A stretch of 64,000 bases of DNA from an uncultured Gammaproteobacteria bacterium (GTDB lineage Bacteria; Patescibacteriota; Patescibacteriia; Patescibacteriales; UBA12075). The notes beneath the pieces were generated by a model that saw only the letters and a list, made by a program, of their open reading frames with translations, was not told the origin of the DNA and ran no database searches. The stretch is from positions 27,529 through 91,528 of the forward strand of contig CAYWNT010000001.1 of the NCBI GenBank assembly GCA_964459725.1, in the 5' to 3' direction. Positions within the stretch are counted from its first letter, which is position 1. The number at the start of each line of letters is the position of its first letter. The position numbers and the translations under genes are program-made. This document shows, one piece after another, positions 16,896-39,399 of this stretch.

Positions 16896-17360
16896 ATGAA
16901 GTGTCCTATTTGCCACAACGTAGATACTAAGGTAGTTGATTCCAGAGCAGCCAATGATGGATATTCGATTAGGAGAAGAAGAGAGTGTTCTAAGTGCCAA
17001 TTTCGATTTTCTACATTTGAAGAAGTTGAAATTTTAGATCTTTTGATCGTTAAGCGCGACAAAAGGAAAGAAGCTTATAATAGAGACAAGCTTATAAAGG
17101 GGCTTAATAGATCACTTGAAAAAAGACCGATCACAGAAGAGAGGTTTAAAAAACTGGTCAACTCTATCGAGAGAGACCTTCAGTCTTTGAAGAAAAATGA
17201 GATCATTTCTGATCAGATTGGAGAGATAATAATGAAACACCTTAAAAAAATCGATAAAGTGGCCTATATTCGTTTTGCCAGCGTTTACCAATCATTTGAA
17301 AATATTCAAATATTCCAAGAAGAGCTGGAGAAACTGATAAAAAAGAAAAAGAAAAAATAG
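16896..17360 (+). CDS. nrdR: Transcriptional repressor NrdR
   Basis: 154 aa with the N-terminal zinc ribbon MKCPICHNVDTKVVDSR...RRRRECSKCQFRFSTFE plus an ATP-cone. Confidence 0.92.
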   Translation: MKCPICHNVDTKVVDSRAANDGYSIRRRRECSKCQFRFSTFEEVEILDLLIVKRDKRKEAYNRDKLIKGLNRSLEKRPITEERFKKLVNSIERDLQSLKKNEIISDQIGEIIMKHLKKIDKVAYIRFASVYQSFENIQIFQEELEKLIKKKKKK

Positions 17361-17384
17361 ATTATAAAATAGATTTTTAATTCC

Positions 17385-19508
17385 ATGCAAAACTCAATAA
17401 AAAAACTTATCAAAAGATCCGGTCAAATTGTAGACTTTGATCAGAAAAAAGTAGAGAAGGCTATATACAAAGCAACTGTAGCGGTTGATAGAGCCAACAA
17501 GGCCCTAGCAAAACAGTTGGCTGAAGAAGTAGCAAAAAAAGTGAATGAAAAATTTCACACAAGGAGCATTCCGGCCGTTGAAGAGGTGCAGGATATTGTA
17601 GAGAAAGTTATTATCAACAATAACCACACCAAGATAGCAAAGGCCTACATTCTCTATAGAGATCAGCACAGACTACTCAGAGAAGTTAATGATACAGAGA
17701 TAGAAGATAAGTTAATGGAGGATTACTTGGGAAGAGCTGATTGGAGGCTTAAGGAAAATAGTAACATGAGTTTTTCCGTGCAGGGACTTAATAATTATTT
17801 AGCTTCTTCTATATCGGCAAAATATTGGTTGAACAAATTATATCCAACAGAAATTAGAAGTGCACACATTAATGGGGAATTACATATTCATGATTTAGGA
17901 ATGTTGTCACCATATTGTTGTGGGTGGGACCTTAAAGATCTTTTACTTCGCGGATTTGGCGGCGTTGGTGAAAAGATTCAAAGTAAGCCACCTAAACATT
18001 TTCGTTCTGCTTTGGGCCAGATAGTTAATTTTTTATACACTTTACAGGGAGAGGCAGCCGGCGCGCAAGCATTTGCTAATTTTGATACATATCTAGCTCC
18101 TTTTATTAGATATGATGGTCTAAGCGAAAAAGAAGTAAAGCAAGCATTGCAGGAGTTCATGTTTAATGTGAATGTTCCAACTCGTGTTGGATTCCAGACT
18201 CCTTTTACCAATGTTACTATGGATGTGGTTCCTTCAAAAATGATCGGAGAAGAACAAGTTATTATCGGTGGTAAGGTTATGAAGGAGAAATATGCTGATT
18301 TCCAAGAAGAGATGGATACATTTAACAAGGTTTTTGCTGAAGTTATGATCGCTGGAGATGCAACAGGCAGAGTGTTTGCCTTTCCAATACCAACATATAA
18401 TATTGATAGCAATTTTGATTGGAACAAGGAGGCATTGGAGCCAATGTGGGAAATGACAGCAAAATACGGAATTCCTTATTTTTCAAACTATATAAATTCT
18501 GATATGGACAGGGATGACGCTAGAAGCATGTGTTGTAGACTAAGGTTGGATAATAGAGAGCTTAGAAAAAGAGGCGGTGGTCTTTTTGGTGCCAACCCTC
18601 AGACTGGGAGCCTTGGCGTGGTAACTATAAATCTAGCCAGAATCGGACACCTGGCAAAAGACAAAGAAGATTTTAAAAAGAGATTAGGCAGACTTATGGA
18701 TTTATCAAAAGAGAGCCTAGAAATAAAGAGAAAAGTAATAGAGAAATACTCAAAAGACGGTTTGTACCCATATTCAAGATATTATTTGGAGAATATAAAC
18801 GAAAGATTTGGCACATACTGGAAAAATCATTTTAATACCATAGGTATAAATGGAATGAATGAAGCTTTGATCAACTTTATACAGAGAGATGTTTCAAGTC
18901 AGGAAGGAAAAGAGTTGGCTGAAGAGATTTTAGACTTCATGAGAGAGAGATTGATGGATTATCAAAATGAAACTAATAATCTATACAACCTAGAAGCAAG
19001 TCCGGCTGAAGGAGCAACATATAGATTTGCCAAGAAAGACAAAGAGCTATATCCGGAAATTGTAGTAGCAAATAATGACGCTGTAGAGAAGAAGGGAGCA
19101 GATCCTTACTACACCAATTCATCTCATCTGCCTGTAGGATTTACAAGTGATATTTTCGAAGCTTTGGATTTACAGGACGAACTACAAACAAAGTATACAG
19201 GAGGAACAGTACTTCATGGATTTGTAGGAGAAAGAATCAAGGATATTGAGAGTTGTAAGATGTTGGTAAAGAAGATTTGTGAGAAGTACCGCTTACCATA
19301 TTTTACAGTTACTCCTACATTTTCAATTTGTCCTAAGCATGGTTATCTTCCAGGTGAACATAAATATTGCCCGAAGTGTGACCAGGAAAATGGATATATT
19401 GAAGATGGCAGTGTAGAAATGCCAGCAGAAACAGTTCAATCAAGCATGGAAAAGGTTAGAGAGGGCCAGGAGAATACAGAGAGAAGTATTATTGAAGCAA
19501 TAGCGTAG
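17385..19508 (+). CDS. nrdD: Anaerobic ribonucleoside-triphosphate reductase NrdD, large part lacking the glycyl-radical motif
   Basis: 707 aa with an N-terminal ATP-cone, a class III RNR core and the C-terminal zinc ribbon ICPKHGYLPGEHKYCPKCD. A non-conserved acidic tail then ends at TAG 19506-19508, and no RVxGY/W motif is present in this ORF. Confidence 0.88.
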   Translation: MQNSIKKLIKRSGQIVDFDQKKVEKAIYKATVAVDRANKALAKQLAEEVAKKVNEKFHTRSIPAVEEVQDIVEKVIINNNHTKIAKAYILYRDQHRLLREVNDTEIEDKLMEDYLGRADWRLKENSNMSFSVQGLNNYLASSISAKYWLNKLYPTEIRSAHINGELHIHDLGMLSPYCCGWDLKDLLLRGFGGVGEKIQSKPPKHFRSALGQIVNFLYTLQGEAAGAQAFANFDTYLAPFIRYDGLSEKEVKQALQEFMFNVNVPTRVGFQTPFTNVTMDVVPSKMIGEEQVIIGGKVMKEKYADFQEEMDTFNKVFAEVMIAGDATGRVFAFPIPTYNIDSNFDWNKEALEPMWEMTAKYGIPYFSNYINSDMDRDDARSMCCRLRLDNRELRKRGGGLFGANPQTGSLGVVTINLARIGHLAKDKEDFKKRLGRLMDLSKESLEIKRKVIEKYSKDGLYPYSRYYLENINERFGTYWKNHFNTIGINGMNEALINFIQRDVSSQEGKELAEEILDFMRERLMDYQNETNNLYNLEASPAEGATYRFAKKDKELYPEIVVANNDAVEKKGADPYYTNSSHLPVGFTSDIFEALDLQDELQTKYTGGTVLHGFVGERIKDIESCKMLVKKICEKYRLPYFTVTPTFSICPKHGYLPGEHKYCPKCDQENGYIEDGSVEMPAETVQSSMEKVREGQENTERSIIEAIA

Positions 19509-19637
19509 GTTAGAGCTGTTAGATGGTTTTATAAATTTTACCAATAGTTAAATAAAATAAAATAAAAAAATAAATAAGGGTTTAGATTTGAATAGTTAAA
19601 AGTAATTATTCAATCCCTAACCCCAATCCCTATCAAT

Positions 19638-19775
19638 ATGAGTCCTATCAAAACAAAAAGGCAAGAATGCACAATATATAGCCGAGTTGTAGGCTGGATC
19701 ACTCCAACTAGAAATTGGAACAAAGGAAAGAAAAGTGAGTGGCAAGACAGAGAAACATACAAGGTAGATTGTTAA
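19638..19775 (+). CDS. Detached glycyl-radical domain of NrdD (45 aa)
   Basis: MSPIKTKRQECTIYSRVVGWITPTRNWNKGKKSEWQDRETYKVDC carries the class III RNR C-terminal radical motif. It is in the same frame as nrdD but separated by five stops. Its stop abuts the nrdG start. It falls below the ORF-track cutoff. Confidence 0.55.
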   Translation: MSPIKTKRQECTIYSRVVGWITPTRNWNKGKKSEWQDRETYKVDC

Positions 19776-20519
19776 TTGAAAATATTAATGATAATTGGCG
19801 GATTGGAAAAATTTAGCTTAATTGATTTCCCGAAGCATTTGTCGGCAATTGTTTTTACAAAAGGTTGTAATTTCCGATGCCAATTTTGTTATAATCCCAT
19901 GCTTGTCGTGCCCGAAAGGGAAAATGGGTTTGAAAAAGATCGTTTTCTTGATTCTGAAAAATCAGAGTCAATCAAAGAGAGCGATCTTTTTGTATTCCTG
20001 GAATCAAGAATTGGAAAATTAGACGCTGTAGTGATAACAGGAGGAGAGCCCCTCTTGCATAATGATTTAGAGGATTTTATCATAAAGATTAGAAAAATGG
20101 GCTTTAAAATAAAATTGGATACTAACGGAACAAGCCCAGAAAAACTGAAAAACTTAATTGAAAAAGGTTTATTGGATTATATCGCGATGGATATCAAGGG
20201 CCCGAAAGAAAAATATGTCGAAATTACAGGAGTTAATATTGATTTGAAAGATATTCTAGAAAGTATTATAATAATAATGGAGAGCGGAGTTGATTATGAG
20301 TTCAGAACTACAGTTGCTCCGAGCATGCTAGAGCCAGTTGATATAGAAAAAATGGGAGAAATGATAAAGGGTGCTAAAAAGTGGTATTTGCAGCCGTTTA
20401 AGTCTGATACTGAGTTAATAAACAATAAATATAAGAACACTTTACCATATAAAGATGATGAAATGGAAGAAATGAAAAAAAGAGGAGAAAAGTATGTGGA
20501 ATTATGTGAAGTAAGATAA
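19776..20519 (+). CDS. nrdG: Anaerobic ribonucleotide reductase activating protein (radical SAM)
   Basis: Radical-SAM cluster motif CNFRCQFCYNP. TTG 19776 or ATG 19788 is the start. Its position is directly after nrdD. Confidence 0.85.
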   Translation: MKILMIIGGLEKFSLIDFPKHLSAIVFTKGCNFRCQFCYNPMLVVPERENGFEKDRFLDSEKSESIKESDLFVFLESRIGKLDAVVITGGEPLLHNDLEDFIIKIRKMGFKIKLDTNGTSPEKLKNLIEKGLLDYIAMDIKGPKEKYVEITGVNIDLKDILESIIIIMESGVDYEFRTTVAPSMLEPVDIEKMGEMIKGAKKWYLQPFKSDTELINNKYKNTLPYKDDEMEEMKKRGEKYVELCEVR

Positions 20520-27855: not shown

Positions 27856-28009
27856 TGAAATTTTTATGAATTCTTTATTTGACAAATTGCCTTGAAATAT
27901 TTTCTTGCATATGATAAAAAACAAGGTCAATATTTTTATAAATTACTTCAGCGCTTTTGATTGCAGTATTGATGAATTATTTAGCGTTTTATCAAGGGGG
28001 ACAAAAAAT

Positions 28010-31000
28010 ATGTACAATATAAACTTTATCCCAAAACCTAAGAAAAAGGTTGATTTTTCTAAGGTATTGCCATTGATGGTTATTTTTTCAATGGTGATTT
28101 CTATGTTTCCGGCACCTATCTTTGCTGATTTAAATACAGGTATCGATTCTGGAAATAAAATTGATTTTTCTACTATTATTGGACTCGGAAAACATCAATA
28201 CAAAAATGGAAATTATTCCAAATTACAGGACGCTTATAGGTATATCTTTAATAATATCTATACAGATGGTTCTAAGCTACTTGCCTATCCTGAAAAATTT
28301 TCTGCTTCAGAGTCGGGAGCTAGTATTAATTATGATCAAGGAGCAGTATTTAATTTGGACGAAAATGATGACTTGAGTGATCCGAGACAGAAAAATAAAT
28401 TTGAATACTTTGTAAGTTCAACTACGGCAGAGCTAGGAAGAGCTAAGGCTTTATATGATGGCAACATTGCTATATTAGATCTTGAAAAGCACGTAAACGG
28501 AGAATTAAAAAATCTTACATTTGAATCCTCTTCTTATTGTCATATTTTGCATACTTATATTGGTAAGCACGAACAATGTTTCTCTGGCATGAGAGATTAT
28601 GAGGAGTATTTAGATGATGAAAAGTTTGCCGAAAAAGAAGAAACAAGTATTGTTTATTTTCATGTGGATGATGCTAAAAACGGAAAGTTAATGAATGGCA
28701 ATAATCCTCTCTTTAATATTTTGATCTTGCCTGATTTAATTTTTGGTCAAGAAGATAAAGTTCTTGAGAGCTTAGGAGTTGAGGGACAAAAAGCGATCAG
28801 AGATTTTGCAGCTGCAGGAGGAACTGTTTTCTCAACTGGAAAGTCATCTTATTTACTTGAAAAAATTGGACTTCTGGCAGATGGCACAGTTGATAAAGGC
28901 ACAGTAGTAAGAAGCAACTTCAACAAGATTAATTTGAATTGGAACGGGAAAGATGATTATGAAAGTAAATTGCTCAAGATGGGAAATTTTGAAAATGTTT
29001 TTGACGAAACTTTTCTTAATCCGGAAAACAAAGTGTTGAAAGTCATGGCTGACCACTATGTGCGCACTGGAGCGATAGAAGACAATGAGAATAAGTATAA
29101 TGAGACTATAGAAATACTACGAGGATTTAATCATAGATCTCAAATGTATTTCCTAACAAATTATTTTGTTAATTCAGAGAACGACGGAGAACTTAATGAG
29201 GTGGCAAGTTATAATTTAACAATAGGAAATAATTTAACATTTCAAAACGAAGATTCCTTAAGTTCTATAGAAAGGCCAGCCGACAAGATGACAGCCATAG
29301 CTTGGAAAAAATATGATAAAGGAAAAGTGGTGGTTATAAACGGAAATCCAGCATCTGGTCATGAAAAGTATTATCCTTATATTTTTAATTCAGTTTTCTT
29401 GTCTGGAGCAAAAAGCATAATTGCTGACTTAAAGGTGGCGCAAAAAACAAACCCTGACTTAGATGATGATATAATCCCAGCTTATGAAAAAGAGGTGGGA
29501 CTCCTAGGGAGCTTTAAAGTTAATAATTTTTTCAATAAACCAATTGAGAATATAAAGATTGGTGTAAATATTTATAAAGGATTTGAGATCGGTCAAAGTG
29601 ATAGCCTTTCTAATTGTGAAGTAAGAACTTTGGATGATAATGATTTGTATAACCAGAGACTAGAATGTGTTTATGACACCATAGAAGCTTTTGAAGAAGT
29701 ATATTTTGATTTTCCTGTTGTTATGACAGATCCGTATGTCACCAGAAAGAGAAAGGACATAGAAGCAGCAGATGGGGAGATGATTTATACAAGAGATGGA
29801 TTGTGGCAAGAAACAGTAAGTGGAGGAATTAGTTATTTACAAGCTAGAAATAGTTCAGAGATAAGAGGAGAGTATAATCCTGATCCGTCTTCGTTTTACC
29901 CCTTGAAAGGTGAAGGTGATTACATAGACAATGTTTTGTCAGCTCAAAATAGGGCACATACTGACGCTCTAGACGTTGAGCATATTGCAGTAGTTCCATT
30001 GATATCACCTGTGGTTGATGGGAATGATCAAGCTTCACTTGCTTATACTTTGGAGTTTTACAATGAATACTATCAGAACAAAAAAACAGAAAATTCTTAT
30101 GTGTTTCCATTTGAACAATATGGAGAAGTTAGGGATTATGATTATTTAGACTATAAGGAGCTTGGTTGTTCTGATGTAGTACTATCTCCTGACTGGGATA
30201 CACCAGTAAAAGTTGAGCTCATGAATAGAAGCGAAGCTGACTTACCAGTAAGCACAAGTTGTGAAGATGGAAGTCTGAGTAATATTGTTGGAAGAAATTA
30301 TGCGTACAGTATAAATAATAACAACCTAGCAACACTTCAAAGGTTTTTTCCAGATGCTGGAGACACTTACACCAATGCAACACAAAGACAATTGGTATTC
30401 CTAGACACTACCAAAGAGAAAGGAGCTAGAGATTACTATGAAGGATCTATTCCGGAAGAAATAAGAAACGGCAAGACGGCTAAGAAGAAATTGGTTTTTG
30501 CCAGAAATGACGTTTATTTTTATGATAATGACAATTATCCTCTACCATTAGGTGTTGAAGATAATGATATTTATATTTCAGTTGATAAAATGGATGAATG
30601 TGGTGACCCGGAGAAAGGAATTGTAAATCCTGGATATTTTGATCATGAAAAAGAGGGCGGTATAAAGCCAAATGAATATGAAAATGAACTGAGGTGTGAA
30701 CATGGAAAGAAGAAGATTCACGCTAATGTGGTAGAGGATTATACAAATGGAAAAGTTGAGCTATCTCATTATCTTTTCCCTATTACAGATAGTGATAACA
30801 TAAACGAAGTTCATGATTTGGCAGATTTTAATACTTCTTCCAATGAGCACAAAGACTATAGCGAGGTTGAATTTGTAAAAGCGCATACAAATATTTTTAC
30901 ATTGAATCCTAGAACAACACCACTCGGTGGTAAGTTCGTCTTTACTTTGCCTAGTGATGTTAACTTTAATTCAGATGATCCAGTGGGTGAAGGTCTTATT

Positions 31001-34000
31001 AATTTCTCTGCTGACCATGTGGCTTTTAGAGAGATTGAATATAATGCGGAAACAGGAGAGGTGATTGCGAAGTTTATTCGCGGCAAGATGCCAAATGAAA
31101 GATATGGCAAACCAGATATAATGCAGGTTAATTTTGAGGATCTGGATACTGATAGAGATTTTGACCTTAAGGTAGAGCTCAAGAGCTTGGAATATGATAT
31201 TGGCAATGGAGAAAATATGGAAATTTACAAAAATGCTGAGTTCACAGATAATATGCAAATGCAGAAAAAGCCCTTTCTTCGAATGCCTAGTCTTATATTG
31301 AAATTCAGATTAAATAGAGGGGAGAATGAAGATGAAAGTTATTTCAAAAGATACGAAAACATGGAGCCGTTTATTAGATACGGTGTTTATATCCAGGAGC
31401 TATTAAAACATAGAACAGTATATGGTTTTGCAGAAAATCATCCCGTGAGAGATCCTGGGTTGGTACTTAGAAGTGGAGGATTCTCAACATTTTCAAATAT
31501 TGGAGCATCTTCAATTCCGTTCAAAGAATACTTGCAAACAGGAATTAGACAGAGTGTGCCAGCTTCAGCGGTTACTTCTCGTATTGATTATAAAGATATA
31601 TGGAATAGACAATGGACCATGCCAGCCAGAACCGTGCTTCCTGATGTTCCTCCAATTCCGCCACCACTTAGAAATTTTATGATCAATACTACTTTTGAAA
31701 TGAGAGACATGGAAACCGGAGAGCGACACTTAGAGTGGGCATCGGACAGAGAGGTGGAAGTGCTTCATAAATTAAAAACAGTAAATAATTACCCTAAGTA
31801 TTTTGATTGTACAGCCTGTGAGGGAAATGAACTTTTGGTAAGAGAGGACAAGGAAGTAAAGGTGAGAAAAAAATATTATGTGGATATTAGTGAAGAGAGT
31901 CTTTACCCAAATCCTAATAGCTATCCATTAGCCAGAAATATGCCTGATAATGATATGGATGGATTACCTAATTATATGGAGGCAAATATTGGTTCTGATG
32001 AAAATAGTGAAGACACAGATGGAGATGAATATTTGGATGGGGAAGAATTTGTAAATGGATACAATGTCACAGGTGAAGGGGAAGCTTCAACCAGCACTTC
32101 ATCAAGCGCAGGAGCAAGTACAACAATGGAAGAGATAGTAGAAGAAGAGGAAGAAGCTCAAGGATTAAATGGTGACAACGAAGAAGATCCTTCGACCACT
32201 TCGACAGGCTCCCTCCAGGAAGGCGGGCAGGCTCCTTCGGCAAGCTCTCCTTCGACAGGCTCCCTCCAAGACGGCGGGCAAGTAGGACAAGAGGTACAGG
32301 AGGGTGAATCTGGAAATTCTACTGAGGAAGAATCAAATAAAGAAGATTCAACTGAAGAACAGGAAGAGTCTTCTGATTCTGAATCTGAAACTCCTCAAAC
32401 ACAGGAAGTTGAAGTCGAAACAATTGAACAAGTAGAAAGTTCATCTGATGAGGCTAGCAATTTTGCAATTTCATCTGATGGGGTAGACCATCCTGAAAAT
32501 TTGTATTTGAAGTCAGGAAATACTGCCAATTATGGAATGTGTTATCAATCAAAAGGAGATTTAGTTGACGGAGACGTGCTAACTGATAGTGAGAGAAATA
32601 AAATATTAGATGTTGAATTATGTGAAAGTGATGACGAGTGTAGTGAATTGGCTGATATACCTAGCCTATCCAAAAGACCAAGAGGAGAGAGTGGCAACTG
32701 GAACCATTCAGAGGCGGTTGAGGATTATTATCCAGAGAATTATATAAATGAAAGCATGTGGAGTCTGACTCATTATGATTATGCAGACAATGCCTTTGAG
32801 AAAGGTTATGTTTATCATATGGACAATCTTCTTCCTAATTTAGACAATATTAACAATAGAAAAATTCTAAGACCACATAATATTATAGCTCAGCCAATGT
32901 ACAAGGGTCTTGGTTATGCCATGAATTATGACAGAAATTATACATCGAAATTTTATGATGTAGAAGGAAATAAAATTACAGGTTGGCAAAGTGATAACCT
33001 GCAAAACAAAGACGATACATTGCTTGGCGGTCAGCTAGAAGCAAATGAGATTTCAGTAGACAAGGATAATCAGATGAAAAATAGATTTGTAGAGATTACA
33101 AATTTGGAAAATGGTGGAGAAAAGGTAGACAGGGCACTGGGCAATATTTATGCTTGTTTATTTAATAGGTGGAGAGCGAAAGTAGATCCTAATGACACTA
33201 AGTTTGTTTATCCTGACAATGTTTATAAGAATAATGTTATTCCTATTATTCCAGAGCTAAACAAGAATGATGCAAAGTTGACTAGTTATAATTGCGGAAG
33301 TGAATATTATACTCCAGAAAACATTCATGAAATAGACAATATCAAAGAAACTTATTCTAAGGATTGGTTATATTTTGGAATGGGACTTAGAGGTGGAGCT
33401 AAGGAAACCATAAACATAGTTTCAAAGCTAGATCCAATCGAGGGAGTGGCCTATGAGGGAGCGACCAAGATAAATACTGGAGCTAGATTTACTTATTGGA
33501 ATCCGGCCAATGGACCTAATTCGTTTATAGTAACTGATAATGACGTGAATATTGTAGAAGCTAAGCGAAGCAATATCGTGGTGAAGAAAGAAATCATTCC
33601 TGTGGAGGTGCCAACGTTTAATGCTGATATTTATCATTTGATATCTGTGGAAGACGCTAAAGAACATTGGCGATGGTTTAGGGATTCGCCGTATACAAAG
33701 CATTTCGGCTTTGGTGATGCTTCTACCGGAGTAATAGTTGGAAATAACAAGAAGTTGAAAAATAATGGCAGTATAATTAATCCTGGCCAGGAAACCGTTG
33801 TGAAAATTGAATTACTTAATAATAGCGGGTATGATTGGAATTTAATCAAATCACAGAATGGAAAACCAGCGATTGAAGCCCTAGAATTACCAGCAGAAGC
33901 AATTAATGCTAATGATTATTTGTACAAACTTAAACACGCCATCAAAAAGCCGATCAAGTTTAATTTTATAGATCTTGATATTCCGGCTGAGATTAAGGAC

Positions 34001-36115
34001 TATGTAGAAATTATTCCATCAACTTACAATATTAAAGTAGCAGGAATGCTGTTTGACTTTGAGAATATTAATGCTACTAGAATTAGAGATGCTTATAAAG
34101 GTACTTACTATTTAGACCTTAAACTTAAGGACAATTTCCCAGACGAGCTTCGAGGTAGAACTTTTGACATAGGCGTAAAGATTAATTCTGAATATTTTGA
34201 TAAATATCCAGGACATAATAGTCCCGTTGCTCATGATTATGAGTTAGAAATTCCTGATATTAGATTTGGGGTACCTTTCGGAGATGACATGGGTTGGCTT
34301 GCTGGCAGGGTGCATAGAGTTAGTGGACATTCTAAAAATATAAGTATTACAGATGAAATGCCAGAAGGCATAGAGCCAATTGCTATAAAAAGAATCAATG
34401 CTTGGAGTGTAAAGAAGTTTAGAGAAGTGGCCAATGATCCAGTAGCCAAACAAAGAGACATGGATAATTTGTTTAATAAGGCCTGGTATGGAGAAGAAAT
34501 TAATTTTTCTAGTGATAAATTGGAGAATGGAAGCACTGAAATTGAAATTGATTTTAAGAGAAATGATATGAGAGAGTTCCCATTGCCACCTAGTAAGTAT
34601 GGACGCAGCGAAGACGCGAAAATTTACTTCCTTGTAAAATCAAAAGCCAAACAATTAGAATTTGGAGAAAGTATAGTGAATAAGAATTTAGAATTAGACT
34701 ATATTGATACAAATGGGTATAGCAAAACATCAGAAATGAGTAAGCCGAGCTATAGAAAGGTGAAAGCATCAGGCGCTGACCTGGTGGCAACTTATAAAGC
34801 TGAGATTATTGGTGGATCCACAGGAGATACCTTGAGCGCTCAAAAGTTATTTAGAGTTGGAGCAAATTTTGTGAGAGCAGACGTAGAAATATATAACAAT
34901 GGTTCAGCAATTGCATACAAGCCCGTGGTAAAAGTATTTGTTCCAAGAGATGTAAACATAGTTCAAAAAGGAAATATTAAAATACTTAAAGAAAACGGAA
35001 AAAATATTGCAGAAATTTCATTAAACAGAGATATGCCACCAGGAGACAAAACATCTGTAGAATTGATTTTAGAAGTAGGAGCAGAGGATGATCAGTCTGA
35101 TCTTTTAAGTCTTTTGATCAACACTGCTAATGCGGTGAGTGACAAAGTGACAGTGATAGAAAAAGTAGAAACAGAGTTTGATCTGACAAGCACCAGAAAT
35201 GAAAATAGGGTAACTCAGGTAACTGCAGGAAGTTTTGACATGGAATATGCTGATAATGTTTTTTCTAGTTCTGATATTTCAATTGGTGTCACAGAAGTAG
35301 AAGGAGACTCTTATAAAGTAAAATTAACCGGGAACAATATTTCTAATCCATTTTATAAATTGTTTATTAGAAACAATGACTCCGAAGACTTTATTTCACT
35401 CCAGAGTGACTATTCAAGTTCTGGAGAGTACGCTATTGATTTAATAAAAGGGGAGACTCAAATATTTGGAGCCTTGTATGAAAAGAGGAGTGTGCTAAAT
35501 GAAAGTGGAGAAGAAAATGAAGAGTACGTGAAGCTAGCAGAATCATCAGTTTACATGGCTAGTGAAAAAATATTTGGTGGAAGTGGGTTAACAACAGTTC
35601 ATAAATCATTTCTAGCTTCTAGTATCTCAACTAACGATATAATAGATGATGCGACCATGGTTGAAGTGGTAACTGAAGCTGAAAAAGAAGAAATAAAGAC
35701 AAGCGAAGAAGCAATAGAGATAAGTGAGGGGGAAATTCATGAAGATAGTGAAAATGAAATATTGGAAATAAGTATTTGTGGAAGAACAGATGAAGAGGGA
35801 AGGTTAGTGAAAGCTACAAAAATATATTATGTGTCAGAGGGACGAGCAGTTTTTGTTCCAAATTTGAATGAGCTACAAAAATATGCTGGAAAACAAATTT
35901 TTGATGTAAGCCATGAAACTGTTCGGGAGTATTATGATGAAACAAGCGAAAAGAGTTATCCTGACGGAACATTGATTAGAGGATCATGGATATACTTTAT
36001 TAATAGTGATAAGATGGTGTATTTAAGAAGCATGAAAGACCTCCAAGAATATTCAGGAATACCGATATGCAATATAAACAACCAAGAACTGAGAAATTAT
36101 CAAGATAATTACTAA
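28010..36115 (+). CDS. Giant secreted multi-domain surface protein (~2,700 aa)
   Basis: The start is moved to ATG 28010, behind SD aaggggga. The signal peptide ends in ...VISMFPAPIFA. Its recognisable parts are:
- a GATase1-like segment, FNILILPD...AIRDFAAAGGTVFSTGKS
- a TSP3-like segment, DNDMDGLPNYME...DTDGDEYLDGEE
- an acidic Ser/Thr/Glu-rich linker (about 32080-32460)
- CARDB/Ig-like segments near the C-terminus
- two C-terminal ~45-aa repeats
No LPXTG motif or TM anchor was found. Confidence 0.8.
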   Translation: MYNINFIPKPKKKVDFSKVLPLMVIFSMVISMFPAPIFADLNTGIDSGNKIDFSTIIGLGKHQYKNGNYSKLQDAYRYIFNNIYTDGSKLLAYPEKFSASESGASINYDQGAVFNLDENDDLSDPRQKNKFEYFVSSTTAELGRAKALYDGNIAILDLEKHVNGELKNLTFESSSYCHILHTYIGKHEQCFSGMRDYEEYLDDEKFAEKEETSIVYFHVDDAKNGKLMNGNNPLFNILILPDLIFGQEDKVLESLGVEGQKAIRDFAAAGGTVFSTGKSSYLLEKIGLLADGTVDKGTVVRSNFNKINLNWNGKDDYESKLLKMGNFENVFDETFLNPENKVLKVMADHYVRTGAIEDNENKYNETIEILRGFNHRSQMYFLTNYFVNSENDGELNEVASYNLTIGNNLTFQNEDSLSSIERPADKMTAIAWKKYDKGKVVVINGNPASGHEKYYPYIFNSVFLSGAKSIIADLKVAQKTNPDLDDDIIPAYEKEVGLLGSFKVNNFFNKPIENIKIGVNIYKGFEIGQSDSLSNCEVRTLDDNDLYNQRLECVYDTIEAFEEVYFDFPVVMTDPYVTRKRKDIEAADGEMIYTRDGLWQETVSGGISYLQARNSSEIRGEYNPDPSSFYPLKGEGDYIDNVLSAQNRAHTDALDVEHIAVVPLISPVVDGNDQASLAYTLEFYNEYYQNKKTENSYVFPFEQYGEVRDYDYLDYKELGCSDVVLSPDWDTPVKVELMNRSEADLPVSTSCEDGSLSNIVGRNYAYSINNNNLATLQRFFPDAGDTYTNATQRQLVFLDTTKEKGARDYYEGSIPEEIRNGKTAKKKLVFARNDVYFYDNDNYPLPLGVEDNDIYISVDKMDECGDPEKGIVNPGYFDHEKEGGIKPNEYENELRCEHGKKKIHANVVEDYTNGKVELSHYLFPITDSDNINEVHDLADFNTSSNEHKDYSEVEFVKAHTNIFTLNPRTTPLGGKFVFTLPSDVNFNSDDPVGEGLINFSADHVAFREIEYNAETGEVIAKFIRGKMPNERYGKPDIMQVNFEDLDTDRDFDLKVELKSLEYDIGNGENMEIYKNAEFTDNMQMQKKPFLRMPSLILKFRLNRGENEDESYFKRYENMEPFIRYGVYIQELLKHRTVYGFAENHPVRDPGLVLRSGGFSTFSNIGASSIPFKEYLQTGIRQSVPASAVTSRIDYKDIWNRQWTMPARTVLPDVPPIPPPLRNFMINTTFEMRDMETGERHLEWASDREVEVLHKLKTVNNYPKYFDCTACEGNELLVREDKEVKVRKKYYVDISEESLYPNPNSYPLARNMPDNDMDGLPNYMEANIGSDENSEDTDGDEYLDGEEFVNGYNVTGEGEASTSTSSSAGASTTMEEIVEEEEEAQGLNGDNEEDPSTTSTGSLQEGGQAPSASSPSTGSLQDGGQVGQEVQEGESGNSTEEESNKEDSTEEQEESSDSESETPQTQEVEVETIEQVESSSDEASNFAISSDGVDHPENLYLKSGNTANYGMCYQSKGDLVDGDVLTDSERNKILDVELCESDDECSELADIPSLSKRPRGESGNWNHSEAVEDYYPENYINESMWSLTHYDYADNAFEKGYVYHMDNLLPNLDNINNRKILRPHNIIAQPMYKGLGYAMNYDRNYTSKFYDVEGNKITGWQSDNLQNKDDTLLGGQLEANEISVDKDNQMKNRFVEITNLENGGEKVDRALGNIYACLFNRWRAKVDPNDTKFVYPDNVYKNNVIPIIPELNKNDAKLTSYNCGSEYYTPENIHEIDNIKETYSKDWLYFGMGLRGGAKETINIVSKLDPIEGVAYEGATKINTGARFTYWNPANGPNSFIVTDNDVNIVEAKRSNIVVKKEIIPVEVPTFNADIYHLISVEDAKEHWRWFRDSPYTKHFGFGDASTGVIVGNNKKLKNNGSIINPGQETVVKIELLNNSGYDWNLIKSQNGKPAIEALELPAEAINANDYLYKLKHAIKKPIKFNFIDLDIPAEIKDYVEIIPSTYNIKVAGMLFDFENINATRIRDAYKGTYYLDLKLKDNFPDELRGRTFDIGVKINSEYFDKYPGHNSPVAHDYELEIPDIRFGVPFGDDMGWLAGRVHRVSGHSKNISITDEMPEGIEPIAIKRINAWSVKKFREVANDPVAKQRDMDNLFNKAWYGEEINFSSDKLENGSTEIEIDFKRNDMREFPLPPSKYGRSEDAKIYFLVKSKAKQLEFGESIVNKNLELDYIDTNGYSKTSEMSKPSYRKVKASGADLVATYKAEIIGGSTGDTLSAQKLFRVGANFVRADVEIYNNGSAIAYKPVVKVFVPRDVNIVQKGNIKILKENGKNIAEISLNRDMPPGDKTSVELILEVGAEDDQSDLLSLLINTANAVSDKVTVIEKVETEFDLTSTRNENRVTQVTAGSFDMEYADNVFSSSDISIGVTEVEGDSYKVKLTGNNISNPFYKLFIRNNDSEDFISLQSDYSSSGEYAIDLIKGETQIFGALYEKRSVLNESGEENEEYVKLAESSVYMASEKIFGGSGLTTVHKSFLASSISTNDIIDDATMVEVVTEAEKEEIKTSEEAIEISEGEIHEDSENEILEISICGRTDEEGRLVKATKIYYVSEGRAVFVPNLNELQKYAGKQIFDVSHETVREYYDETSEKSYPDGTLIRGSWIYFINSDKMVYLRSMKDLQEYSGIPICNINNQELRNYQDNY
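32199..32282 (+). repeat. GC-rich direct repeat inside the giant gene (33-nt core repeated with a 51-nt period)
   Basis: cttcgacaggctccctccaggaaggcgggcagg (32199-32231) versus cttcgacaggctccctccaagacggcgggcaag (32250-32282), with 3 mismatches. It is translated as STGSLQ(E/D)GGQ and shares 10-11-mers with 22101-22113. Confidence 0.8.
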
Positions 36116-36121
36116 ACAAAA

Positions 36122-36145
36122 AACGCTCCGAAAGGAGCGTTTTTT
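36122..36145 (+). terminator. Rho-independent terminator of the giant gene
   Basis: Stem aacgctcc/ggagcgtt with loop gaaa, followed by ttttt. Confidence 0.8.
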
Positions 36146-36267
36146 AGTAAGTCAAATAACAAATATTTACTTTTTAAATTGTTGTAAAAATTGACGACCG
36201 TCAAATTCTACAACAATTGATAATTTTCGATGGATTGTCTAGGTGTTCTAATGTAGTTTGTATTAAA

Positions 36268-36317
36268 ATAGCACATTCTATAGCACATTCCATGGAATGT
36301 GCTATAGAATGTGCTAT
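36268..36317. repeat. 50-bp perfect palindrome
   Basis: ATAGCACATTCTATAGCACATTCCA|TGGAATGTGCTATAGAATGTGCTAT. Each arm contains the direct repeat ATAGCACATTC twice. It is flanked by ACGACCGTCAAA (36193-36204) and its near-inverse TTTGACCGTCGT (36319-36330). Confidence 0.9.
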
Positions 36318-36374
36318 GTTTGACCGTCGTATAGCAAGGAGGAGTAGAACAACAAGGCTTTCAAGCTTTAAGTA

Positions 36375-36383
36375 TGGTATAAT
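36375..36383 (+). promoter_or_regulatory. Extended -10 element placed for a leaderless transcript of the methyltransferase gene
   Basis: TGgTATAAT 36375-36383, 6 nt, then ATG 36390. No SD is possible. Confidence 0.5.
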
Positions 36384-36389
36384 TAATAT

Positions 36390-37730
36390 ATGAAGAAGAG
36401 ACTTCCGGATAAATTTGAAGTGACAATAGAAAAAATGCATCACAGTGGTGCTGGTGTAGGACGATATAAGAATCGTTCGATTTTTGTTTTTGGAGCAATG
36501 CCTGGAGAAGTGGTTATGGTTCGCCCTTTGCGTGTTAGTCGTGGGAAGGCAAAAGCTGAGCTTGTTAGGGTTGTTAAGTCAGACCCTGGAAGAAAAAAAG
36601 AAAAAGAAGATCATTATTTGTCATGTTCCCCATGGCAGGTTATTGACTATAAATGTCAATTGGAATTAAAAAAGCAAATAGTAAAGTCTCGTTTTGGGCA
36701 AAGTATTGGTAAACCGCCGACAGGAAGTATGGAAATCGAGGGTGGTGTTAGAGAGTGGAATTATCGAAACAAAATGGAGTTTAGTTTTGTGGAGAGCGAA
36801 AAGGGTGGGTTACAACTAGCCCTACACAAAAGAGGAAGACGATATGATTGCTATGAGCTTCATAAGTGTGAAATTGCTCATGAGAGGATAAATATCTGTG
36901 CAAAAGAGGTGGTTGACACATTGAATGCTAAAAAAGTAAAGATCGATCAGGTAAAAAATTTAGTAATGCGTTATAGCCTGTCAGAAAATAAATGTATAGC
37001 TGTGTTGTATGCCAAAGATGAGAATATAGATCTGTTTGATATTAAAATAGAGAATATGGTTGGCTGGAAAATTATTTATTCAGATCCTAGGTCACCAGCT
37101 ACAGTAATTACTAAAATTTTACACAGCCAGGGAAATGATAATTTAACTGATATAATCTTAGGAATAAAACTTGATTATCATTATAGTAACTTTTTCCAAA
37201 TTAATCCTCCAATGTTTGAAAAGTTACTTCAATATGTGATTGACAATATGGAACCTGGAGGCAAGCTCATAGACTTATACTCCGGTGTTGGCACAGTTGG
37301 CTTTGTCTTATCGAAATATTTTGACAGCATAATAAGCGTAGAGCAAGACGAGAAAGCAGTCGAAATTGCCAAGGGCAATATGAAGAAAAATAATTTAAGC
37401 AATGTTGCCTTCTATTCTGGTGCCTCAGAGAAGCAAGATTTGTCCAATATTTTATCTATGGCAGACACCCTGGTGGTAGATCCACCCAGAAGTGGACTTC
37501 ACCCAAAAGTAGTGAAAACTATAGCAAAAAATCCGCCAAAGCAATTTATATATATTTCATGTAATCCCAACACACAGGCAGAGGACACGGAGAAGCTTAA
37601 AAAGATATATAAAATAAAAAAATACAAATTATTTGATCTATACCCCCAGACTCCACATGTTGAAAGTGTGATGATTATGAGAAAAAAGAATTGGCTAGAA
37701 ATGTTTTTTCAAAAAGTTTTGTTAAAATAA
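36390..37730 (+). CDS. TRAM-domain RNA (uracil-5-)-methyltransferase, RlmD/RumA/TrmA family
   Basis: N-terminal TRAM domain (FEVTIEKMHHSGAGVGRY...AELVRV), SAM motif DLYSGVGTVGF, and DPPRSGL and YISCNP motifs. Confidence 0.85.
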   Translation: MKKRLPDKFEVTIEKMHHSGAGVGRYKNRSIFVFGAMPGEVVMVRPLRVSRGKAKAELVRVVKSDPGRKKEKEDHYLSCSPWQVIDYKCQLELKKQIVKSRFGQSIGKPPTGSMEIEGGVREWNYRNKMEFSFVESEKGGLQLALHKRGRRYDCYELHKCEIAHERINICAKEVVDTLNAKKVKIDQVKNLVMRYSLSENKCIAVLYAKDENIDLFDIKIENMVGWKIIYSDPRSPATVITKILHSQGNDNLTDIILGIKLDYHYSNFFQINPPMFEKLLQYVIDNMEPGGKLIDLYSGVGTVGFVLSKYFDSIISVEQDEKAVEIAKGNMKKNNLSNVAFYSGASEKQDLSNILSMADTLVVDPPRSGLHPKVVKTIAKNPPKQFIYISCNPNTQAEDTEKLKKIYKIKKYKLFDLYPQTPHVESVMIMRKKNWLEMFFQKVLLK

Positions 37731-37737
37731 ATAAATA

Positions 37738-37746
37738 TGTTATAAT
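37738..37746 (+). promoter_or_regulatory. Extended -10 element placed for a leaderless transcript of the first mcp
   Basis: TGtTATAAT 37738-37746, 6 nt, then ATG 37753. Confidence 0.5.
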
Positions 37747-37752
37747 ATATTT

Positions 37753-39399
37753 ATGAACAAGGAGAAAAAACAAACAATAGTTAAAATAGTAAGATTTGGG
37801 TTTTTTTTGGTTTTTGCATTCGCCTCGTCCATGGGGGGGATTTTTTTAATTGTCTTGTCTATTACCAAAATTCACATTAGTCAAACCATGGATACTATTA
37901 TTTATTCGAATGCTTATATTGAAGATATAGAGGTTGGTGCCAGTAGAATCAAAGAGGTTGAACAATACTATAAAATCGGTCATTTGGTATCTTTTAACAC
38001 AGCATCATCTGCTACGTTGAGCAATGTAGAGAGGGAGGAGTTCTATTATGCTAAGGCAGAAAATATCTTTTCTGAAATAAAGGCTGAAATTTTATCAAAC
38101 CTAAGTAATATTAAAATAATACCTAAAATAGAAGACTCAATACTTGTTTCAACCGAAGAGGTGCAAGTAAAATTGACAGAGCTGGAACAGGCTAACTTAG
38201 AGTTGATTAACGAGTATCGAATTCATGGAAGCATGATCCAGGAAAAGATTGTGAACTTCGAAAGCAAACAAGAGGAGACAGTGAATGGCATAAAGGTTCT
38301 TAATAGAAAATTAAATGAGCAATACTTTGTAAAAGCCGGCAATATTAATAATTTTTTGGTGTTACTTTTGTATTTAAACGCTGTTATGGTGGTGATGATC
38401 ATTGGAATTGGCATGCTTTTTTCAAAATATTTCTCCGGAAGCGTAAAGGGAATGCTACTTAGTCCTATTGGAGAGATTAAAAATTCCTCAAAAGATATTA
38501 TTAATTTCTTGGTTAAAAATAAAGGAATATCAGCTAGAGCTTCTGAAGTTTCTCGGGATGTTGCCCAGGGAGCAATTAGACAATCTGAGAAATCAAAGGA
38601 AATTGCCTCTCTTATATCTGGTATAGCTCAATCTACAGAAAAAATGTCAAATTCAGCTGGAGGAGCAAGTGAATCCGCAGAGCATACTGCCAAAATTGCC
38701 AAAGAAGCAGAAATAAAGAGTAAGGATTCTCAAAAGAGCCTCGAAGATATTAAGAATATTGTATTGGGCACCTTGGAAATATCGCAAAGTATGTCAGATA
38801 AATCAGAAAAAATTAATAATATAGTAGAAGTAATAACAGGTATAGCCAAACAAACAAATTTACTAGCCCTAAACGCTTCTATTGAGGCTGCCAGTGCAGG
38901 TGAGGCTGGGAGAGGTTTTGCAGTTGTGGCTGAAGAGGTTAGAAAGTTGGCAGAAGAAGCAGATAAATCAGCTGGTGAAATAAGGTTGTTGGTTGATGAT
39001 CTAGCTACTGGTATTAGAGAGACAGTGGTTTCTGCCGAATCAGGAACAGATATTGTGACAAAGAGCACTAAGGAAATAAACAAAACCATAGAGGGGCTAA
39101 AAAGTGTTTCAGATTCAGTTTCAGGTGTGACAGGAAAAGTTGAGGAAGTGTCAGATATCGCTAAGGAACAAACCAAGGCCACAAGTGATATTTCTAAAAT
39201 TTTTGACTCAATTGCTGATGTGGCTAATCAAAATTCAGAAAATGCAAACAAGCTATTAGATATAGTGGGAGAATTGAATATTTCCAATAGTCAGATGTCA
39301 AAAGTGTCATCACAGGTAAAAGGCATGTCGGAAATATTAAAGGATTTGGTCTACAAGACTAAGAAAAAGTTTACCAAAGAACAGGGGGCTGGTAGTTAA
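37753..39399 (+). CDS. mcp: Methyl-accepting chemotaxis protein (two TM helices, ~170-aa extracytoplasmic sensor)
   Basis: Signalling hairpin tip [43 protein letters not shown]. Confidence 0.9.

Follow-up and report, generated by a model that had tools for sequence, protein, structure and literature searches.

The DNA analyzed here is a stretch of 64,000 nucleotides (the window) from contig CAYWNT010000001.1 (positions 27,529 to 91,528 of the forward strand; assembly GCA_964459725.1) of an uncultured bacterium placed by GTDB in the Patescibacteriota (Patescibacteriales, UBA12075). Between the gene for a 2736-amino-acid (aa) protein and a gene for an RNA uracil-5-methyltransferase (rumA), the window carries an exact 25+25 palindrome of 50 bp (ATAGCACATTCTATAGCACATTCCA joined directly to TGGAATGTGCTATAGAATGTGCTAT; positions 36268 to 36317, assigned to neither strand). 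The palindrome had been singled out by a reading of the letters alone (the original prediction), and is compared here with similar sites in other genomes and with the gene of a small AbrB-like protein.

The palindrome and its repeat unit

The palindrome is built from four copies of a 12-bp unit, TAGCACATTCYA, two of them forward and then two reverse. Units 1 (TAGCACATTCTA, 36269 to 36280) and 2 (TAGCACATTCCA, 36281 to 36292) lie on the forward strand and are followed by the reverse copies, units 3 (36293 to 36304, read as TGGAATGTGCTA on the forward strand) and 4 (36305 to 36316, read there as TAGAATGTGCTA). Units 2 and 3 together make up a 24-bp core, TAGCACATTCYATRGAATGTGCTA, which is present across Patescibacteria. 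The 11-mer ATAGCACATTC, described in the original prediction as four equivalent half-sites, does occur exactly four times in the window, always within the palindrome, twice on each strand and 12 bp apart; near matches elsewhere in the window were at chance level only. A second match to the 24-bp core was absent from the window even with three mismatches allowed, and none of 100 shuffles yielded one, in line with the view that the site is too perfect for chance. Base for base, the whole intergenic region recurs in two other assemblies, each from its own BioSample (SAMN10231913 and SAMN10231914), which excludes a fold-back artefact of assembly, and six more contigs bear the same gene. The palindrome is thus confirmed as real and far beyond chance.

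As single-stranded DNA, the palindrome is predicted to fold with −24.3 kcal/mol (z = −11.3). Searches of Rfam at gathering and at permissive thresholds returned microRNA-like hairpins only, far below cut-off and meaningless. Small open reading frames (ORFs) over the palindrome (58 aa on the forward strand; 80 and 26 aa on the reverse strand) were rejected as merely translated repeat (MCYRMCY.. and AHSIAHSMECAIECA), as was AAGGAGG at 36336 to 36342 as a Shine-Dalgarno sequence, there being no start codon at a usable distance.

Arrays of the unit in other genomes

To search beyond the window, one genome per species (185,579 species) was scanned for the pattern TAGCACATTC-N0-30-GAATGTGCTA. The scan returned 63 loci, with an estimated chance expectation of about 17 across the whole collection. 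Close to half lie in genomes of the window's kind: 28 are labeled Patescibacteria, Parcubacteria, Paceibacterota or Saccharibacteria, and two more are low-GC (33%) contigs with identical arrays. Up to six loci were found per single metagenome-assembled genome (MAG). The core in Patescibacteria-type genomes is again TAGCACATTCYATRGAATGTGCTA, with at least 20 bases identical across many MAGs. Units occur almost solely in arrays, in a 12-bp register and with forward before reverse copies, in 1+1, 2+1 or 1+2 arrangements (two to three units), and the 2+2 array of the window is the largest seen. Asymmetric arrays (2+1 and 1+2, with CATA/TATG centers) keep the sequence of the unit but not perfect symmetry, which counts against a cruciform, one of the roles suggested earlier, as the selected property. 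The remaining matches, in other phyla, are hairpins with unrelated loops, about as numerous as expected by chance. Genes downstream of other arrays share no theme (histidine phosphatase, CysS, RNase HII, serine hydroxymethyltransferase, NUDIX, ATP-binding cassette transporters, an IS200-like gene), and the gene contexts of the arrays are not those of SOS genes. A scan of viral collections for the motif gave two unrelated hairpins only, and no paper on the 12-bp motif or its AbrB-like protein turned up in literature searches, whether by topic or by sequence string.

Several other arrangements of the same arms were seen among the scanned loci. At three of them, in three genomes (L046, 6690 to 6830; L068, 570 to 720; L072, 770 to 900), the array sits inside a larger conserved inverted repeat (GTTAAATGAAATTGGCTTCACGAT ... 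ATCGCGAGCCAACTTCACTTAAC), and this composite element may be structured. Two further multi-copy palindrome families have the same 10-nt arms, TAGCACATTC and GAATGTGCTA, and different loops (TGTTA or AAGGAT in one case, a conserved 17-nt loop flanked by TTA...TAAT in the other); their hosts are Poribacteria (L003, L007, L011, L036, L056 and L063) and Eubacteriales/Clostridia (L010, L047, L052 and L061), and they could be unrelated operators or elements resembling repetitive extragenic palindromes (REPs). A Saccharibacteria MAG has, twice (L020, 6365 to 6396; L044, 7372 to 7403), the variant TAGCACATTC-TAGCATATGCTA-GAATGTGCTA, in which the middle unit is itself palindromic. In L023 (6956 to 7682), an IS200-like Y1_Tnp gene is preceded, at a distance of 7 nt, by a same-arm palindrome that has a 5-nt center, lies within a longer inverted repeat and forms TGCTATACT at its end.

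A short AbrB-like gene adjoining the arrays

At nine or more loci, in no fewer than nine species (L041, L048, L049, L057, L070, L073/74, L080, L092 and probably L054), arrays of TAGCACATTCYA abut the start of a stand-alone gene of 54 to 55 aa belonging to PF04014; of these, L048, L070 and L073/74 were added by tblastn over the loci together with metagenome matches. In L041, L049 and L057, TAAT comes after the array, and 6 nt further on is the ATG of a 55-aa ORF (MAKHIIKLTKSSRYSYS...EDKGRG..KDWR). Where array and TAAT join (GTGCTA/TAAT), they form an extended −10 box, TGCTATAAT, whose TGcTA comes from the last unit; the ATG lies 6 to 8 nt past this box in most of the loci (about 30 nt in L073/74). 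Sequences upstream of the array cannot be aligned between species, and the neighbors of the AbrB-like gene differ in every genome, with no toxin gene behind it. The ends of the window array offer boxes in the equivalent position: an extended −10-like element, TGCTATGTT, at its right end (36312 to 36320, forward strand), a putative promoter, and its mirror image at the left end, TGCTATTTT (36265 to 36273, reverse strand), which may be a −10-like element or a U tract. Many database gene calls of the AbrB-like family have spurious N-termini (MCYN.., MCYRMCYN.., MECAII..) that are translated (G)AATGTGCTATAAT. These extended calls are a systematic annotation artefact, and they show the motif upstream of the gene in further clusters (P0126, P0129, P0131, P0132, P0140, P0141, P0143, P0147, P0150 and P0152).

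The 55-aa ORF matches Pfam PF04014 (MazE/AbrB/SpoVT) above the curated cut-off. Its AlphaFold2 monomer model, of low confidence (predicted local distance difference test score of 60) and used solely for the order of secondary-structure elements and the kind of top matches, runs strand-strand-helix-strand-strand, and the top Foldseek matches, with weak E-values, are all AbrB-fold (SpoVT, MazE, the AbrB N-domain, C68 and VapB). The AbrB-fold assignment follows from the agreement of these three lines. A PDB sequence search with the protein and with the family profile found nothing significant, no curated NCBIfam family matches the protein, and viral collections held no relatives of the family. 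By profile, the family has at least 919 homologues; in its alignment, residues from position 21 on (the C-terminal two thirds) are near-invariant and residues 2 to 13 are variable.

A control independent of the motif started from the protein homologues (58 by single-sequence search and 919 by profile) and covered 10 genes at nine distinct loci. Two to four units of the TAG-N6-CTA type lie within 60 nt of the ATG in eight of the 10 genes. Under a strict definition (a 24-mer TAG...CTA at most two mismatches from a palindrome), such sites occur in these loci solely at the AbrB-like gene, and just once in 200 kb of unrelated loci. The frame is constant, with unit junctions of CYATRG and TAG/CTA edges on each unit, and the 6-bp core inside it varies. 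L080 and L092 have the identical core CACATT, L079 has TACATA (unit TAGTACATACTA), L085 has TACATA/TACGTA (units TAGTACATACCT and TAGTACGTACTA), L083 has TGTCAT (unit TAGTGTCATTTA) and L090 has AGACTT (unit TAGAGACTTCTA). In L081 (3001 to 3766), two adjacent paralogues 600 bp apart, with a zinc-ribbon gene between them, each have their own array; the cores, AGCACT for L081a (TAGAGCACTCTA) and AGGACT for L081b (TAGAGGACTCTA), are one base apart, and the N-terminal loops of the proteins read KKGRYSYT versus KKTEYSYT. Recognition by each protein of its own array would fit this pair better than a shared third-party regulator, and the pair is a natural test of specificity. Across the gene-first loci, the operator core thus varies with the protein, taking six different 6-bp forms in a small sample to which no statistical model was applied. 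This pattern suggests that the invariant part of the protein may read the frame and the variable N-terminal residues the core.

Surroundings of the array in the window

The window has about 35% GC and a GC skew that is positive throughout, with no turning point, so it contains neither origin nor terminus; the idea of a replication-related site fails on this ground. Gene order is RF2, ComEC, a FabA-like gene (reverse strand), two unknown genes, the 2736-aa protein, the palindrome, rumA, and chemotaxis and pilus genes. Counted from the rumA start, the array covers about −122 to −73.

To the left of the array, the 2736-aa ORF (27905 to 36115) matches no Pfam domain but contains an acidic stretch of low complexity and, at its N-terminus, a hydrophobic segment; together with the two unknown genes before it, it is missing from the ComEC-rumA interval of the nearest relatives. 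Its bidirectional intrinsic terminator (AAAACGCTCC-GAAA-GGAGCGTTTT with A and T runs; 36116 to 36147, or about 36120 to 36143 plus the T run; neither strand assigned) is present as the original prediction described. Next comes an imperfect 25+25 inverted repeat (36172 to 36223) centered on TTGACG-AC-CGTCAA, which lies outside the conserved motif and includes the first of two 12-mers that the original prediction had seen as brackets. This 12-mer (ACGACCGTCAAA) and its inverted copy with one mismatch (TTTGACCGTCGT, 36319 to 36330) do exist, the first at 36194 to 36205, one base from where it had been placed; both are at chance level, 32 of 100 shuffles having given as many matches at two or fewer mismatches, and they are absent beside every other array. 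The proposed unit of about 140 bp, or remnant of a miniature inverted-repeat transposable element (MITE), is not upheld, its bracketing 12-mers being at chance level and missing from all other copies. On the reverse strand, a segment of about 140 nt between TGCTATTTT and the bidirectional terminator (36116 to 36260) spans the imperfect inverted repeat; its RNA is predicted to fold with −39 kcal/mol (z = −6.6), and it could be a candidate small RNA under control of the array.

To the right, 58 bp from the array, the rumA promoter TGGTATAAT (36375 to 36383) is followed by 6 nt and the ATG at 36390 (whole layout 36375 to 36392, forward strand), as had been described. A leaderless-type promoter is plausible, since the same TGnTATAAT-N6-ATG layout recurs at the AbrB-like genes and at the next gene of the window: for the latter, a methyl-accepting chemotaxis protein (MCP) gene, TGTTATAAT, 6 nt and the ATG occupy 37738 to 37755. 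A Shine-Dalgarno-like sequence precedes only five of the 42 large ORFs of the window. The rumA product, encoded by the first gene downstream of the array (36390 to 37730, forward strand), is a TRAM/U5-methyltransferase of the RumA/RlmD type (TRAM plus tRNA_U5-meth_tr domains) with nearest homologues at no more than 61% identity; those with a named source belong to Falkowbacteria, Parcubacteria and other Patescibacteria. In the nearest rumA relatives, the order is RF, ComEC, a 156-aa gene and rumA, with no array. Given these differing neighbors and the missing array, the array in the window is specific to its lineage and coincides with a break in gene order.

Downstream of rumA, a full chemosensory set (two MCPs, CheW, CheB, CheA, CheC/X, CheD and CheY) adjoins type IV pilus genes (PilB, PilC, pilins and PilM, the last as PilM-SH3) between 37753 and 54943, which suggests chemosensory control of pili in this genome. 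At the left end of the window, a large serine recombinase ORF (819 to 2564; Resolvase, Recombinase and zinc-ribbon domains) runs at its 3' end into an oppositely oriented tRNA gene (2475 to 2547), an overlap that may be the edge of an integrated element. An nrdR-nrdD-radical-SAM activase cluster (anaerobic ribonucleotide reductase and its repressor) lies at 16896 to 20519. The palindrome was considered as an NrdR box and rejected: the spacing of its CACA...TGTG arms is 4 bp longer than in the NrdR consensus, and nrdR-nrdD is 17 kb away.

A probable operator array and its alternatives

The palindrome in the window is probably a four-unit operator array for a small protein of the AbrB/MazE/SpoVT fold that is widespread in Patescibacteria. 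A conserved array, its fixed place over a −10 box, a core that changes with the protein and the different cores of adjacent paralogues lead to this proposal; together, these features are what comparative genomics typically shows for an autoregulated transcription factor and its operator. Of the roles suggested earlier, a high-occupancy operator with multiple half-sites for a multimeric regulator is supported by the comparison, since the same unit is arrayed on the promoter of an AbrB-fold gene in many Patescibacteria. In the mechanism we propose, the AbrB-like protein, as the putative binder, would sit on its own promoter and block RNA polymerase, giving negative autoregulation by repression, and it would also bind at a handful of further arrays between genes in each genome. 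A gene for it would be expected in the genome from which the window comes. On the array in the window, several dimers, presumably one per unit, would bind next to one another on double-stranded DNA, with the terminator of the 2736-aa gene on one side and rumA and the chemotaxis and type IV pilus genes on the other. The most likely effect of the array would be to silence the weak, outward-facing promoter-like ends of the array (TGCTATGTT rightwards and TGCTATTTT leftwards), and/or to separate the two transcription units as a protein roadblock or insulator; some genes of the window would respond to it.

Several observations weigh against this proposal. The window encodes no member of the AbrB-like family (tblastn and a profile search of all six frames over 64 kb), and no homologue among the 120 listed of the 919 could be tied to the organism of the window; two candidates for its own regulator, P0205 and P0131, were discarded, both coming from other samples. 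The array in the window overlaps no strong promoter, its ends giving weak −10-like boxes only, and rumA orthologues at 54 to 60% identity (P0004 and P0010) have neither the array nor the same neighbors. Most of the loci found by starting from the motif were ascertained on the motif itself, and among the loci found by starting from the gene, two of Moranbacteria type (L075/76 and L077/78) have no array. Terminator-like features also recur: TATTTT follows 13 of 69 array ends, and several arrays elsewhere lie between convergent genes or right after stop codons (L017, L021, L045, L053 and L071). A role as terminator or roadblock for part of the sites is accordingly a live rival or a second function.

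The palindrome could act with no protein at all, as a hairpin serving as a back-up or bidirectional intrinsic terminator, or as an RNA-stability stem, between the 2736-aa gene and the rumA and chemotaxis genes, its conservation being incidental. Besides the TATTTT tracts and intergenic positions seen elsewhere, both strands of the palindrome come out as terminator-like in a consensus scan, with TATTTT after its left end on the reverse strand and TATGTTTG after its right end. We consider this account unlikely. Stems of terminators are not conserved in sequence between species, in contrast to the 20 or more identical bases shared here by many MAGs, and at the AbrB-like genes the array is upstream of the predicted transcription start and hence untranscribed. 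RNA pairing also leaves unexplained the asymmetric 2+1 arrays and the changes of core that track the protein variant. In the window itself, the 2736-aa gene has its own canonical terminator 120 bp upstream of the palindrome, and no gene on the reverse strand runs into it.

An equally improbable account, in our judgment, is that the array is an orphan or relic that arrived by horizontal transfer, for example with the block of the 2736-aa gene, and is now either unbound or merely titrates the regulator. The failure to find the cognate gene in the window, or to identify one for its organism, fits such an origin, as does a lineage-specific site at a break in gene order. The search for the gene covered only 64 kb of the genome, however, and four mismatch-free units, identical in all assemblies, argue for selection or for a very recent origin.

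We give still less credence to a small palindromic repeat that moves or spreads (REP/REPIN- or MITE-like), is maintained by a transposase-like enzyme and has no regulatory role at the window site. The motif is indeed multi-copy and intergenic, at non-homologous places in several genomes; the same-arm palindrome of L023 directly precedes an IS200-like Y1_Tnp gene; and gene order breaks at the window site in comparison with the nearest relatives. However, no Y1_Tnp homologue was found in the window or in any locus except L023, and the palindrome there has a different center and ends in a −10-like box (TGCTATACT) before the gene, which fits the operator proposal. Exact copies number about six per MAG and one in the 64-kb window, conserved flanks and target duplications are lacking, and the 12-mers that flank the window array are absent elsewhere. 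REP elements diverge fast between species, in contrast to a 12-bp unit that is identical across many MAGs and fixed on one promoter.

That the site serves some other DNA process, be it initiation or termination of replication, recombination (dif-like or by another recombinase) or DNA uptake, is hardly credible despite the perfect palindrome, the ComEC and type IV pilus genes in the window and a serine recombinase 34 kb away, as the GC skew never switches sign, no recombinase adjoins the site, one site per 64 kb is far from the density of uptake sequences in Neisseria and Haemophilus (roughly one per kb), and the fixed position on the promoter of the AbrB-like gene would be left unexplained.

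Comparison with known systems

The putative regulator resembles the AbrB/SpoVT N-domain and the MazE/VapB antitoxins in its match to PF04014 and in its structural neighbors (SpoVT, MazE and the AbrB N-domain). AbrB and MazE bind repeated or palindromic DNA over their own promoters and autoregulate, and the AbrB-like protein appears to do likewise. Unlike AbrB, its 54 to 55 aa comprise the DNA-binding domain and a short basic tail, without a C-terminal multimerization domain, and its unit is sharply defined and 12-bp periodic, whereas the specificity of AbrB is loose; unlike MazE and VapB, its gene is not followed by a toxin gene. MraZ is an AbrB-fold regulator that binds short repeats of fixed spacing upstream of its own gene at the dcw promoter, and the proposed placing of several subunits side by side on a repeat array would be shared with it. 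MraZ differs in having two fused AbrB-like repeats, large rings and direct-repeat boxes with a spacing of about 10 bp, as opposed to the 12-bp head-to-head units and the single, half-size domain with no dcw link described here.

Archaeal and viral AbrB-fold DNA binders of similar size (about 50 to 60 aa) among the top Foldseek neighbors, namely C68 (pSSVx), C56 (pSSVi) and the "histone-like protein" of PDB entry 5itj, are domain-only dimers. These proteins are described as general or plasmid-specific DNA binders and not as regulators with periodic operators, and identity to them is only 21 to 24%, on a low-confidence model. By analogy only, with no homology, the arrays also recall those of the Omega repressor (pSM19035) and MetJ, whose operators vary in the number and orientation of units and whose affinity rises with unit number. 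There too, the operator is two to four copies of one short unit, direct or inverted, but the fold is ribbon-helix-helix and the units are 7 to 8 bp. The outer arms TAGCAC ... GTGCTA of the inverted repeat bring to mind CIRCE/HrcA (TTAGCACTC-N9-GAGTGCTAA). This resemblance is superficial and was discarded: the TAGCAC-GTGCTA spacing is 12 nt here versus 13 in the consensus, and the inner bases differ. No site examined precedes groES/groEL or dnaK, and the neighbors in the window are the 2736-aa giant surface protein, rumA and chemotaxis genes.

Implications for Patescibacteria

The pairing of regulator and operator is apparently undescribed and would be widespread in Patescibacteria, the element itself being probably an operator array of an AbrB-fold regulator. 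A broader extension of this proposal, which as a whole strikes us as doubtful, is that the family of at least 919 members and its TAG-N6-CTA arrays amount, throughout Patescibacteria, to a regulatory or chromatin system whose code can be read. In such a system, the invariant C-terminal part of the protein would recognize the constant CTATAG frame and its variable N-terminal residues the 6-bp core, with single-base changes of the core insulating paralogues from each other. Some arrays would occlude promoters, and others would serve as roadblocks or as bidirectional terminators. The array in the window would keep a horizontally acquired block encoding the giant surface protein insulated from the chemotaxis and type IV pilus genes.

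Very little is known of transcription control in the uncultivated, reduced-genome Patescibacteria. The arrays offer a sharply defined DNA word linked to a specific, tiny and widespread putative DNA-binding protein, together with a natural series of operator and protein variants. With a protein of 55 aa that can be synthesized and operators made of 12-bp modules, binding, stoichiometry and code would be testable in vitro without culture. For annotation, both the recurring perfect palindrome and the false MCYN... N-termini in calls of the AbrB-like gene would be explained, and the motif could be used to read regulons in thousands of MAGs.

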